A stretch of 64,000 nt of DNA from Escherichia coli. Its GTDB lineage: Bacteria > Pseudomonadota > Gammaproteobacteria > Enterobacterales > Enterobacteriaceae. The notes below the pieces were generated by a model. That model ran no database searches. It was not told the DNA's origin and saw only the letters and a program-made list of their open reading frames with translations. Positions 34,268 through 39,611 of the stretch are shown here, in pieces (positions within the stretch are counted from its first letter, which is position 1; each line of letters starts with the position of its first letter). Where the stretch lies: assembly GCF_003334255.1 (NCBI RefSeq), contig NZ_QOWU01000004.1. One strand, given 5' to 3'. A program made the position numbers and the translations under genes.

Positions 34268-36589
34268 ATGATGAATGATTCGTTCTGCCGCATTATTGCG
34301 GGTGAAATTCAGGCGCGCCCGGAACAGGTTGACGCTGCCGTTCGCCTGCTTGACGAAGGGAATACCGTGCCGTTTATCGCACGTTATCGTAAGGAAATCA
34401 CCGGCGGTCTGGATGACACGCAGCTGCGTAATCTGGAAACGCGTCTGAGCTATCTGCGCGAGCTGGAAGAGAGACGTCAGGCGATCCTCAAGTCCATTTC
34501 CGAGCAAGGCAAACTCACCGATGATCTGGCGAAGGCCATCAACGCCACCCTAAGCAAAACCGAACTCGAAGACCTCTACCTGCCCTACAAACCTAAACGC
34601 CGCACCCGCGGGCAAATCGCCATTGAAGCAGGGCTTGAGCCGTTGGCTGACCTGCTGTGGAGCGATCCGTCACACACGCCAGAAGTCGCCGCTGCACAAT
34701 ATGTTGATGCCGATAAAGGCGTGGCAGATACCAAAGCCGCGCTGGATGGCGCGCGCTATATCCTGATGGAACGGTTTGCCGAAGATGCCGCGCTGCTGGC
34801 GAAAGTGCGTGATTATCTGTGGAAGAACGCGCATTTGGTTTCTACGGTGGTGAGCGGTAAAGAAGAGGAAGGGGCGAAATTCCGCGACTATTTCGATCAT
34901 CACGAACCGTTGTCCACGGTGCCTTCTCACCGCGCGCTGGCGATGTTCCGTGGGCGTAACGAAGGCGTACTTCAGCTTTCGCTGAATGCCGATCCACAGT
35001 TCGATGAGCCGCCCAAAGAGAGCTATTGCGAGCAAATCATCATGGATCACCTTGGCCTGCGCCTGAACAATGCCCCGGCGGATAGCTGGCGCAAAGGCGT
35101 GGTGAGCTGGACGTGGCGCATCAAGGTGCTGATGCATCTGGAAACCGAACTGATGGGCACCGTGCGCGAACGTGCGGAAGATGAAGCAATCAACGTCTTT
35201 GCCCGTAACCTGCACGATCTGCTGATGGCGGCCCCTGCCGGACTGCGTGCAACGATGGGCCTCGATCCGGGTCTGCGTACTGGGGTAAAAGTGGCGGTGG
35301 TCGATGCCACTGGCAAACTGGTGGCGACCGACACCATTTACCCGCACACCGGACAGGCCGCAAAAGCAGCGATGACCGTTGCTGCGCTGTGTGAAAAACA
35401 TAACGTTGAACTGGTAGCGATCGGTAACGGTACAGCTTCCCGCGAAACTGAGCGTTTCTATCTCGATGTGCAGAAGCAGTTCCCGAAAGTGACCGCGCAG
35501 AAAGTAATCGTCAGCGAAGCAGGCGCGTCGGTTTACTCGGCTTCCGAGCTGGCTGCACAGGAGTTCCCGGATCTCGACGTTTCGCTGCGTGGCGCGGTGT
35601 CTATCGCCCGCCGTTTGCAGGATCCGCTGGCGGAGCTGGTGAAAATCGATCCGAAATCTATCGGCGTAGGTCAGTATCAGCATGACGTCAGCCAGACGCA
35701 ACTGGCCCGCAAACTGGACGCAGTAGTAGAAGACTGCGTAAACGCCGTTGGCGTCGATCTCAACACTGCTTCTGTTCCGCTGTTAACCCGCGTGGCGGGC
35801 CTGACGCGCATGATGGCGCAAAACATCGTTGCCTGGCGCGATGAGAACGGTCAGTTCCAGAACCGTCAGCAACTGTTAAAAGTGAGCCGTCTGGGGCCGA
35901 AAGCCTTCGAGCAGTGCGCGGGCTTCTTGCGCATTAACCACGGTGATAACCCGCTGGACGCGTCTACCGTTCACCCGGAAGCCTATCCGGTGGTGGAACG
36001 CATTCTGGCAGCAACACAGCAGGCACTGAAAGATCTGATGGGTAACAGCAGCGAACTGCGTAACCTGAAAGCGTCTGACTTTACTGATGAGAAATTCGGT
36101 GTGCCGACGGTAACCGACATCATCAAAGAGCTGGAAAAACCGGGTCGCGATCCGCGTCCGGAATTTAAAACCGCTCAGTTTGCCGATGGCGTCGAGACAA
36201 TGAACGACCTGCAACCGGGTATGATCCTCGAAGGCGCAGTGACCAACGTCACCAACTTTGGCGCGTTTGTCGATATTGGCGTGCATCAGGACGGCCTGGT
36301 TCACATCTCTTCATTGTCGAACAAGTTTGTGGAAGATCCGCATACCGTGGTGAAAGCGGGCGACATTGTGAAGGTGAAAGTGCTGGAAGTGGATCTTCAG
36401 CGTAAACGTATCGCCCTGACTATGCGCCTGGATGAGCAGCCTGGCGAAACCAACGCTCGTCGCGGCGGCGGTAATGAACGCCCGCAAAACAACCGCTCGG
36501 CAGCCAAACCACGCGGTCGTGAAGCGCAGCCTGCCGGTAATAGCGCGATGATGGATGCGCTGGCGGCGGCAATGGGCAAAAAACGTTAA
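34268..36589 (+). CDS. tex: Tex-like transcription accessory protein (S1-domain RNA-binding)
   Basis: 773-aa ORF (yhgF); a C-terminal S1 domain followed by a basic tail is visible. Confidence 0.93.
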
Positions 36590-36600
36590 ACGCCCGTACT

Positions 36601-36664
36601 GGCCTACGGTTCGAATTTGCACGAAATCGTAGGGCAGATAAGGCGTTCACGCCGCATCTGGCAA
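36601..36664. repeat. REP/BIME-like palindromic element
   Basis: ggcctac...gtagggcagataaggcgttcacgccgcatctggc downstream of tex. Confidence 0.55.
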
Positions 36665-36687
36665 CGAACGCCTTGCCTGACATAAAA

Positions 36688-36718
36688 GTGCCGGAGAATA
36701 TCTCCGGCATTTTTATTC
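36688..36718 (+). terminator. Rho-independent terminator downstream of tex
   Basis: gccggaga-atat-ctccggc stem-loop followed by atttttatt. Confidence 0.7.
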
Positions 36719-36842
36719 CACAGCCAAACTCATAATATATTCCGGCAATATTTATCATTTCATTAACAACTGAAACCTTAATTAAACATTAGCCAGTCCG
36801 GGTAATTCACTATTCGAATTATATTTTCGCTGCGATATAACC

Positions 36843-36856
36843 TTGAGCCACATCAA
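36843..36856 (+). promoter_or_regulatory. FNR-type binding site upstream of feoA
   Basis: TTGAG-CCAC-ATCAA matches the FNR consensus TTGAT-N4-ATCAA with one mismatch; feoABC is known to be FNR-activated. Confidence 0.55.
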
Positions 36857-36910
36857 CATTGAGTCAGATTATTATTCAAACCAACATTCGCACACATTTT
36901 AAGTATTGCT

Positions 36911-36937
36911 GATAGAAACCATTCTCATTATCATTGT
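36911..36937 (+). promoter_or_regulatory. Fur-box-like element upstream of feoA
   Basis: gatagaaaccattctcattatcattg contains a TCATTATCATT core resembling the Fur consensus GATAATGATAATCATTATC. Confidence 0.5.
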
Positions 36938-37045
36938 GTTGTTGATTATTTAATCTCTCCTTTGTTGGCAAATCATCTGGTCTCATGTCGCTGTCAAACG
37001 CCCCATGAGGTAGTTATCCAGTTAATGAGAAACAAGTAGGCACCT

Positions 37046-37273
37046 ATGCAATACACTCCAGATACTGCGTGGAAAATCACTGGCTTTTCCCGTGAAATCA
37101 GCCCGGCATATCGCCAAAAACTGCTTTCTCTTGGCATGTTACCTGGCTCCTCTTTTAATGTGGTGCGCGTCGCTCCACTCGGCGACCCCATTCATATCGA
37201 AACCCGTCGTGTGAGCCTGGTATTACGCAAAAAAGATCTGGCCTTATTAGAAGTGGAAGCGGTTTCCTGTTAA
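37046..37273 (+). CDS. feoA: Ferrous iron transport protein A
   Basis: 75-aa ORF ([37 protein letters not shown]...). Confidence 0.95.
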
Positions 37274-37289
37274 TACGGTGATAACAACA

Positions 37290-39611
37290 ATGAAAAAATT
37301 AACCATTGGCTTAATTGGTAATCCAAATTCTGGCAAGACAACGTTATTTAACCAGCTCACTGGCTCACGTCAGCGTGTAGGTAACTGGGCTGGCGTTACC
37401 GTCGAACGTAAAGAAGGGCAATTCTCCACCACCGATCATCAGGTCACGCTGGTGGACCTGCCCGGCACCTATTCTCTGACCACCATCTCATCGCAGACCT
37501 CGCTCGATGAGCAAATCGCCTGTCACTACATTTTGAGTGGCGACGCCGACCTGCTGATTAACGTGGTGGATGCGTCTAACCTTGAGCGTAACCTGTACCT
37601 GACGCTACAACTGCTGGAACTCGGCATTCCCTGCATTGTGGCACTGAACATGCTCGACATTGCCGAGAAGCAAAATATTCGTATTGAAATTGATGCTCTG
37701 TCGGCGCGTCTGGGCTGTCCGGTGATCCCGCTGGTTTCAACCCGTGGTCGCGGTATTGAAGCGCTCAAGCTGGCGATTGATCGCTATAAAGCTAACGAGA
37801 ATGTGGAACTGGTGCATTACGCACAGCCGCTGCTCAACGAAGCAGATTCACTGGCAAAAGTGATGCCTTCCGACATCCCGCTGAAACAACGTCGCTGGCT
37901 GGGCCTGCAAATGCTGGAAGGCGATATCTACAGCCGCGCCTACGCCGGTGAAGCGTCGCAGCATCTGGATGCCGCCCTCGCCCGTCTGCGTAATGAGATG
38001 GACGATCCGGCGCTGCACATTGCCGATGCGCGTTACCAGTGCATTGCTGCCATCTGTGATGTGGTAAGCAACACCCTGACGGCAGAACCCAGCCGTTTCA
38101 CCACTGCGGTAGATAAAATCGTGCTCAACCGTTTCCTCGGTCTGCCGATTTTCCTCTTTGTGATGTACCTGATGTTCCTGCTGGCTATCAACATCGGCGG
38201 GGCGTTACAGCCGCTGTTTGACGTCGGCTCCGTGGCGCTATTTGTGCATGGTATTCAATGGATTGGCTACACGCTCCACTTCCCGGACTGGCTGACTATC
38301 TTCCTCGCCCAGGGCCTGGGTGGCGGCATTAACACCGTGCTGCCACTGGTGCCGCAGATTGGCATGATGTACCTGTTCCTCTCCTTCCTTGAGGACTCCG
38401 GGTATATGGCGCGTGCGGCGTTTGTGATGGACCGTCTGATGCAGGCGCTGGGCTTGCCGGGGAAATCCTTTGTGCCGCTGATCGTCGGTTTCGGTTGTAA
38501 CGTACCGTCGGTAATGGGTGCACGTACGCTTGATGCACCGCGTGAACGTCTGATGACCATCATGATGGCACCGTTTATGTCCTGCGGCGCGCGTCTGGCT
38601 ATCTTCGCAGTATTCGCGGCTGCCTTCTTCGGGCAGAACGGTGCGCTGGCGGTCTTCTCGCTGTATATGCTGGGTATTGTGATGGCGGTGCTGACTGGCC
38701 TGATGCTCAAGTACACCATCATGCGCGGTGAAGCGACGCCGTTTGTCATGGAGTTGCCGGTCTATCATGTACCACACGTTAAAAGCCTGATTATCCAGAC
38801 CTGGCAGCGTCTGAAAGGCTTCGTTCTGCGTGCTGGTAAAGTGATCATCATCGTCAGCATTTTCCTGAGCGCTTTCAACAGCTTCTCGCTGAGCGGGAAA
38901 ATCGTCGATAACATCAACGACTCGGCGCTGGCGTCCGTCAGCCGGGTGATCACCCCGGTCTTCAAGCCAATTGGCGTGCATGAAGATAACTGGCAGGCAA
39001 CGGTTGGCCTGTTTACAGGTGCCATGGCGAAAGAAGTGGTAGTGGGTACGCTCAACACCCTCTACACCGCAGAAAATATTCAGGACGAAGAGTTCAATCC
39101 GGCAGAATTTAACCTCGGTGAAGAGCTGTTCAGTGCGATAGATGAAACCTGGCAGAGCCTGAAAGACACCTTCAGCCTTAGCGTACTGATGAACCCCATT
39201 GAAGCCAGCAAAGGCGACGGCGAAATGGGTACCGGGGCGATGGGCGTGATGGATCAGAAATTCGGTAGCGCAGCAGCAGCTTACAGCTACCTGATTTTCG
39301 TCCTGCTGTATGTACCATGTATCTCGGTGATGGGGGCTATCGCCCGTGAATCAAGCCGTGGCTGGATGGGCTTCTCCATCCTGTGGGGGCTGAATATCGC
39401 TTACTCACTGGCAACATTGTTCTATCAGGTCGCCAGCTACAGTCAGCATCCAACTTACAGCCTGGTGTGCATTCTGGCGGTTATCCTGTTTAACATCGTG
39501 GTTATCGGTCTGCTGCGCCGCGCGCGTAGCCGGGTGGATATCGAACTGCTGGCAACCCGCAAGTCGGTAAGCAGTTGCTGCGCAGCCAGCACCACCGGTG
39601 ATTGCCATTAA
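37290..39611 (+). CDS. feoB: Ferrous iron transporter B (N-terminal GTPase plus membrane permease)
   Basis: ORF track starts at GTG 37278; ATG at 37290 gives 773 aa; G1 P-loop (GNPNSGKTT) at the N-terminus and a polytopic membrane domain. Confidence 0.95.

Follow-up and report, generated by a model that had tools for sequence, protein, structure and literature searches.

What does the DNA between yhgF and feoA contribute to the expression of the feoABC operon, and does the transcribed part of it carry a function beyond that of the promoter upstream? We examined this question in a 64,000-nt stretch of an Escherichia coli contig (referred to here as the window), in which a first-pass annotation, made from the sequence alone, had described positions 36719 to 37045 as a long AT-rich feoA leader with FNR-like and Fur-like sites. 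The region is very probably the sigma-70 promoter/control region of the feoABC ferrous-iron uptake operon, subject to FNR, Fur, and ArcA/OmpR control. This control region, with its FNR and Fur sites, is already known; the annotation was the rediscovery of a textbook control region, whose true FNR and Fur operators proved to be recognizable from raw sequence. The transcribed leader is a different matter and is taken up below, after the promoter and its sites.

The 456 bp at 36590-37045 are 100% identical to the sequence of E. coli K-12 MG1655, and a search of 5,426 complete E. coli genomes found this stretch in every one. Published positions were converted to window positions using two offsets (NC_000913.3 = window + 3,503,117; U00096.2 = window + 3,501,139), the second of which was confirmed with one published site. 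The full gap before feoA is 456 bp (i.e., 36590-37045), and the approximately 330 bp of noncoding sequence reported at first pass correspond to the count from the yhgF terminator. The first ~127 bp of the gap are made up of a REP-like element and the yhgF terminator hairpin, which was called on the - strand by a terminator scan; this terminator marks the upstream boundary of the feoA control region. Of the 330 bp that had been taken as leader, ~220 bp are upstream regulatory/promoter DNA. The AT-rich part is real (GC content of 0.30 to 0.35 at 36700-36950), but it is this promoter DNA, and the GC content of the 3' half of the transcribed leader is 0.44. The features of the region are listed in Table 1.

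The spacer on the yhgF side has some peculiarities of its own. The REP-like palindromic element lies at ~36620-36670, and its match to Rfam naRNA4 was weak and below the threshold. In approximately 70% of the E. coli genomes, the alignment begins only at query base 46-48 and the sequence 3' of the yhgF stop is a different one, so this side of the spacer is polymorphic among strains.

Table 1. Features of the yhgF-feoA region in window coordinates; signed positions are relative to the feoA transcription start site unless otherwise indicated.
Feature	Position	Strand	Description
yhgF (Tex family protein)	ends 36589		5' neighbor of the feoA control region
yhgF (tex) terminator	36689..36716	+	Hairpin TGCCGGAGA-ATA-TCTCCGGCA, then TTTTTAT; by sequence reading
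ArcA-P binding site	36749..36769	.	TTGTTAATGAAATGATAAATA on - strand; -191 to -171
OmpR motif TTATCAtttcaTTAACA	36752-36768		Overlaps the ArcA site; gel shift; -294 to -278 from ATG (Gerken 2020, PMC7315122)
FNR site TTGAGCCACATCAA	36843..36856	.	Center ~-90.5 from the start site
Weaker upstream Fur hexamer cluster	36855..36885	.	Three registers 6 bp apart, each 11/19; abuts/overlaps the FNR site
Candidate RstA/OmpR-like direct repeat CCAACAttcgCACACA	36881..36896	.	-59 to -44; proposed in Gerken 2020 (PMC7315122)
-35 hexamer TTGCTG	36906..36911	+	3/6 to consensus; 17 bp to -10; near-invariant block in 78 species
Fur operator (ChIP-exo footprint)	36908..36941	.	Spans -35, -10, and start site; includes the Fur-like element of the first-pass annotation
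-10 hexamer TATCAT	36929..36934	+	5/6 to consensus; by sequence reading
feoA transcription start site	36940 +/-1	+	Derived from Park 2013 Table S6; 6 nt past -10
feoABC 5' untranslated leader	36940..37045	+	106 nt
Candidate outer helix P1, 5' arm	36960..36969	+	CUU.GUUGGC; RNAalifold
Candidate hairpin P2	36981..37010	+	UCUCAUG / CAUGAGG, inner GC/GC pair, 8-nt loop
Candidate outer helix P1, 3' arm	37021..37029	+	GUUAAUGAG; RNAalifold
Ribosome-binding region AAGUAGG	37034..37040	+	5 nt before ATG; near-invariant across genera, including short-leader species
feoA coding sequence	37046..37273	+	ATG at 37046; followed by feoB and feoC
Short-leader loci (L040, L041, L042, L048, L056, L060, L063, L069, L072, L073, L076-L079, L081)	~1460-1500 in each standard locus

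The feoA loci of 80 Enterobacteriaceae species were compared, with spacing and footprint counts made over 78 species. The sequence ACCATTCTCATTATCAT around the -10 hexamer was recovered with <=3 changes in all 80 loci, and the block TTGCTGATAGAAACCATTCTCATTATCATTG, which holds the -35, Fur, and -10 elements, is near-invariant across species. A consensus promoter scan found no promoter on the + strand at feoA, having overlooked it because the -35 hexamer matches the consensus at only three of six positions. The single - strand promoter call of the scan (36763..36734) was at chance level and was discarded.

The transcription start site was back-calculated from the study of Park 2013 (PMC3798270), in which an ArcA site is given as -191 to -171 from the mapped start; this corresponds to 3538079, i.e., window position 36940. 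The start thus derived lies 106 nt upstream of the ATG rather than right beside feoA, and the untranslated leader of roughly 110 nt anticipated at first pass comes to 106 nt (36940..37045). Alternative hexamers 20 bp downstream (TTATCA-15-TTTAAT), based on SELEX, were given by Shimada 2014 and correspond to a leader of ~85 nt. As for independent start-site records, feoA is absent from the supplements of Kim 2012, and the Cappable-seq files examined contain no nearby coordinates.

The FNR element read at first pass as TTGAG-CCAC-ATCAA was placed exactly, at 36843-36856, and agrees with the consensus (TTGAT-N4-ATCAA) at 9 of 10 positions. Five one-mismatch FNR patterns were observed in the 64-kb window, where 2.3 were expected, and 11 of 100 shuffles did as well. 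This count alone is not significant, so the reality of the site rests on its conservation and on published ChIP data. The half-sites (TTG...TCAA) are kept across the 78 species, with variation at the four bases between them; the FNR center and the predicted start are 90 to 91 bp apart in 75 of the 78; and the phylogenetic footprint of these Enterobacteriaceae contains no indels between the FNR site and the -10 hexamer. Such fixed spacing, together with the conservation of the sites, provides independent support for the FNR and Fur sites and for their coupling to the TATCAT promoter. The same 14-mer, TTGAGCCACATCAA, is listed at 3537982 with a PatSer score of 14.6 in Table S6 of Myers 2013 (PMC3688515), where it is flagged "+" (i.e., beneath an FNR ChIP-seq peak). 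The feoABC operon is described in that study as a known case in which Fur masks FNR activation, and its fnr-dependent anaerobic expression is given as known both there and by Beauchene 2015 (PMC4676285).

From where does FNR act? With -41.5 taken as the class II position and -61.5, -71.5, -82.5, and -92.5 as class I positions, the FNR center at feoA falls at -90.5, or at -91.5 given the +/-1 nt on the derived start site, and the class I position at -92.5 is close by. We infer that FNR activates feoA from upstream, at a class-I-like location. Most natural FNR-activated promoters belong to class II and have the site at -41.5, and a site at -90.5 is thus unusual. Were FNR to occupy a class II position here, a second FNR-dependent start would be expected near 36891 (site center 36849.5 + 41.5), with a leader of ~155 nt. 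We consider such a start very unlikely, given that the hexamer at the corresponding place (AACCAA, 36879-36884) is no usable -10 and lies in a poorly conserved stretch, while the invariant -10 is TATCAT at 36929-34. The Fur ChIP-exo footprint is also centered on the downstream promoter, Park 2013 relies on one mapped start, and Myers 2013 gives one feoA promoter.

The Fur-like element noted at first pass (~36911..36937) resolves into two overlapping 13/19 matches to GATAATGATAATCATTATC, which start at 36914 and 36920, six bases apart. The two account for 2 of the 14 matches of that quality (<=6 mismatches) in the 64-kb window, and a third register in the operator matches at 12/19. In supplementary file 3 of Gao 2023 (PMC10164565), a feoA Fur ChIP-exo peak (P104) is reported at 3538047-3538080 (window 36908-36941) under iron-replete conditions only. 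Relative to the start site, this footprint extends from -32 to +2, which points to direct occlusion as the mechanism of repression. Fur sites were also predicted by Chen 2007 (PMC2189734) at 3538059 and 3538065 in the operator (window 36920 and 36926; 10.9 and 13.4 bits) and at 3538006 (window 36867; 10.5 bits), and the predicted clusters were matched to the two Fur boxes of Kammler. The operator is near-invariant across the 78 species. Repression of a feoA-lacZ fusion by Fur was observed only anaerobically (Beauchene 2015). Both motifs seen in the raw sequence are thus the documented feoABC FNR and Fur sites (Myers 2013; Gao 2023), as the first-pass annotation had supposed in referring to known anaerobic and iron control.

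Just past the ChIP-exo footprint, at 36944-36955 (+5 to +16), lies a palindrome, GATTATTTAATC, which is kept even in short-leader species. Another protein may bind there, or the palindrome may represent one more pair of Fur hexamers.

The FNR and Fur elements were the only sites listed at first pass; an ArcA/OmpR site at 36749-36769 and the weaker Fur cluster at 36855-36885 had been overlooked. The ArcA site is backed by ChIP and is found at U00096.2 3537888-3537908 in Tables S3, S4, and S6 of Park 2013, where feoABC expression is reported to be changed 3.7-fold in an arcA mutant. OmpR shifts a fragment bearing TTATCAtttcaTTAACA (Gerken 2020), and the direct repeat shared by ArcA and OmpR is conserved across genera. 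Nearer to the promoter, the candidate RstA/OmpR-like repeat CCAACAttcgCACACA is moderately conserved across species; a short fragment containing it was not shifted by unphosphorylated OmpR in the same study.

The DNA between the ArcA/OmpR and FNR sites (36795-36842) is the fastest-evolving part of the region, with ~25% divergence within Escherichia. In most lineages its predicted fold is more stable than that of shuffled sequences (mean z = -1.4), owing in part to an AATTCG...CGAATT palindrome.

Taken together, these elements suggest the following course of events. Transcription would start at 36940 +/-1 from a weak promoter (TTGCTG, 17 bp, TATCAT) in need of activators. Under iron-replete conditions, Fe2+-Fur would sit on 36908-36941, over the -35 hexamer, the -10 hexamer, and the start, and would block RNA polymerase; the weaker Fur cluster at 36855-36885, beside the FNR site, may also hinder activation. 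When oxygen is lacking, FNR would bind TTGAGCCACATCAA, centered near -90.5, and ArcA-P (and OmpR) bound to the direct repeat at -191 to -171 would raise transcription. Given activation by FNR and ArcA and the block by Fur, the operon would be on only at low oxygen and with scarce iron. The resulting feoABC mRNA would carry a 106-nt leader ahead of a modest ribosome-binding site.

The sequence divergence of this leader shows that it is subject to strong purifying selection. Only 1 of its 106 positions differs between K-12 and E. albertii, versus 100 of 370 third codon positions in feoB (Fisher p ~1e-11) and 31 of 124 positions in the distal promoter. Compared with Citrobacter and Salmonella, the leader has diverged at about half the synonymous rate, similar to the core promoter.

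A block of 150 nt (36964-37113) contains zero substitutions between K-12 and E. albertii; the corresponding block for E. whittamii is 36984-37113. It reaches into feoA and covers its first 68 nt, a stretch in which one would expect several synonymous changes; another Escherichia lineage (L015) has three changes in this feoA part. The block could reflect a recombination tract held in common or constraint on the RNA near the start codon.

Leader length differs sharply in one group. The distance from the -10 hexamer to the ATG is 104 to 116 nt in most genera, but it is only ~40 nt in Enterobacter, Leclercia, Lelliottia, Silvania, and Huaxiibacter, in which ~65 nt, including both arms of the predicted helix P1 and the hairpin P2, are gone. 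These species keep the same FNR/Fur/-10 core, and the neighboring genera all have the long leader. The leader module is thus dispensable in the Enterobacter clade. At the other extreme, the distance is 240 nt in Klebsiella indica (L071, ~1260-1500) owing to a ~135-nt insertion, the ends of which are terminal inverted repeats (ATTCGAGTTGC...GCAGCTTGAAGTAT) and which resembles a small mobile palindromic element.

One addition to the model of transcriptional control is that the 106-nt leader is a cis-regulatory RNA, in which P2, with or without P1, tunes feoA translation or mRNA stability or provides a dock for an sRNA or protein. We regard this as possible rather than probable. Besides the purifying selection (1/106 versus 100/370 between K-12 and E. 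albertii) and a leader length held at 104 to 116 nt in most genera, the case for it is structural. RNAalifold, applied to the Escherichia, Citrobacter, and Salmonella leaders, predicted the G-U-rich outer helix P1 and the inner hairpin P2, with pair probabilities in K-12 of ~0.23 and ~0.82, respectively. In an alignment of 22 species made blind to structure, 84.6% of the cells pair, versus 27 to 49% with slid partners; 20 cells are compensatory, and compensatory changes occur at 4 of the 11 pairs of P2, whereas the variation in P1 is all one-sided. By a more robust measure of covariation, however, pairs changed on both sides are no more frequent in the leader than in shuffles (4 versus 3.6; 272 of 500 shuffles). 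When 57 leaders were aligned with a covariance model, 90.6% of the alignment was paired and 13 of the 18 pairs had changes on both sides; such a model-fitted alignment is biased to the structure, however, and in this one the hairpins of Klebsiella and Kluyvera ended up in the loop insert.

In 10 of 11 sequence clusters, the central leader was more stable than its shuffled versions (p = 0.006), with a mean z of -1.2 to -1.4 for the central 40 nt, but control regions give similarly negative z scores, which weakens this test. For the leader as a whole, the folding energy is unremarkable: z is +0.63 in E. coli, and the mean z of 59 leaders is -0.05. In other genera, different and often GC-rich hairpins occupy the position of P2. 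The hairpin arms do not line up from genus to genus in a plain MAFFT alignment of the full set of 59 long leaders, and for this reason RNAalifold returned no structure on it. Weakening changes in E. whittamii and Salmonella, and the ~65 nt missing from the leader in the Enterobacter clade, also argue against an RNA element. The search of 36300-37400 against Rfam 15, with E values up to 10, gave no match in 36940-37045 and only weak REP- or sRNA-like matches upstream. Of the additional RNA structure envisaged at first pass, what has held is the strong constraint and a recurring hairpin; the leader has no Rfam match and an ordinary folding energy, and the covariation is only suggestive.

The leader could instead be conserved by constraint at the DNA level, through extended binding of Fur, H-NS, or NagC or through an operator (e.g., for FeoC), with no RNA function. 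The persistence of palindrome GATTATTTAATC at +5 to +16 even with short leaders would fit this explanation, as would the flagging of H-NS in the feoA spacer by Shimada 2014 and the inclusion of NagC among the feoA regulators in Myers 2013. The hairpin energy, too, lacks a sense-strand preference, as for a DNA palindrome, although this comparison of sense with antisense (23 versus 36) is uninformative as to an RNA fold or a DNA palindrome. On the other hand, the Fur ChIP-exo footprint stops at +2, no evidence for FeoC-DNA binding was found in the literature examined, and the central palindrome varies between genera yet stays self-complementary, a pattern more in keeping with a nucleic-acid fold than with a protein site. 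We therefore consider conservation at the DNA level unlikely.

A second alternative is that the leader encodes a small regulatory peptide, an idea also raised at first pass. E. coli does have an ATG-MSLSNAP-stop reading frame at +46 to +69 and a 25-codon TTG open reading frame at 36962-37039, but the leader open reading frames are not conserved between genera: the MSLSNAP peptide has another sequence and length in Citrobacter and is absent from Salmonella, Klebsiella, Kluyvera, Raoultella, Pluralibacter, and Cedecea. Its ATG simply belongs to the hairpin arm CUCAUG and has no ribosome-binding site before it, and NC_000913.3 has no small gene annotated in the leader. An upstream open reading frame with such a role is highly improbable.

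There is no U-run past P2 and no + strand terminator was called by the scan in the leader, and in the predicted folds the ribosome-binding site AAGUAGG is unpaired or trivially paired rather than sequestered, all of which count against an RNA element with an expression platform of these kinds. The leader contains no GGA motif, and CsrA effects on feoABC have been reported as indirect. Inspection for pairing of the leader with RyhB, FnrS, and OmrA/B yielded nothing convincing or conserved.

Two boxes that flank the hairpin in most genera, at 36963-36971 (CGTTGGCTA) and 37019-37028 (CAGTTAGCGA), are alike as a direct repeat and are also able to pair via G-U wobbles. Because of this likeness, the "outer helix" could be a repeated recognition sequence instead.

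The fuller proposal is that the leader represents an undescribed, selectively maintained cis-acting RNA module (P2 with or without P1, flanked by CGUUGGCUA and CAGUUAGCGA), which would bring ferrous-iron uptake under additional post-transcriptional control in the Escherichia, Salmonella, Citrobacter, and Klebsiella lineages, and which the ancestor of the Enterobacter clade would have lost by deletion. This is somewhat more speculative than the general idea of a cis-regulatory leader. Our literature search found no paper on the conservation of the feoA leader or on its hairpin, and the known control of FeoABC in the literature examined is all transcriptional or proteolytic. In enteric bacteria, iron import under anaerobic conditions depends mainly on FeoABC, which is important for colonization of the gut. 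With its near-frozen state in Escherichia and its clean loss from one clade, the leader provides an inexpensive natural experiment on post-transcriptional control.

Comparison with known systems places both the promoter and the leader in context. The promoter of yfiD has a distal FNR site near -90, approximately nine helical turns upstream of the start, as at feoA. It also has a site at -40.5 that activates, whereas feoA has the upstream FNR site only, plus ArcA and OmpR sites. With regard to the leader, the RyhB-activated leaders of shiA and cirA suggest, by analogy only, that an iron-acquisition mRNA with a long, structured 5' leader could be controlled post-transcriptionally; no sign of sRNA pairing was found for the feoA leader. 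RyhB-activated leaders of iron-uptake genes are mentioned in Beauchene 2015.

The feoA promoter (feoAp) of E. coli K-12 (Kammler 1993; Myers 2013; Park 2013; Gao 2023) is the same locus, with an identical sequence, the same FNR, Fur, and ArcA coordinates, and nothing different. The feoABC operon of Yersinia pestis (O'Connor 2017, PMC5519574) is the same operon and is repressed by Fur, and it has putative FNR and ArcA motifs. However, that study reports that its promoter DNA has no similarity to that of E. coli, that fnr and arcA have no effect on it, that it has two promoters, and that iron represses it only microaerobically. The feoA promoter of Salmonella enterica (L008, L016) is close to that of E. 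coli; the hairpin in its leader is imperfect (z = +1.1). According to the account given in Gerken 2020 (citing Jeon 2008), S. enterica feoA has an RstA box, i.e., an RstA/OmpR-type repeat upstream of the promoter, as in E. coli; the fragment bound by OmpR in E. coli is, in contrast, distal (-188 to -172), and the proximal CCAACA..CACACA did not shift. The -35/Fur/-10 core and the FNR spacing of the Salmonella promoter are as in E. coli.
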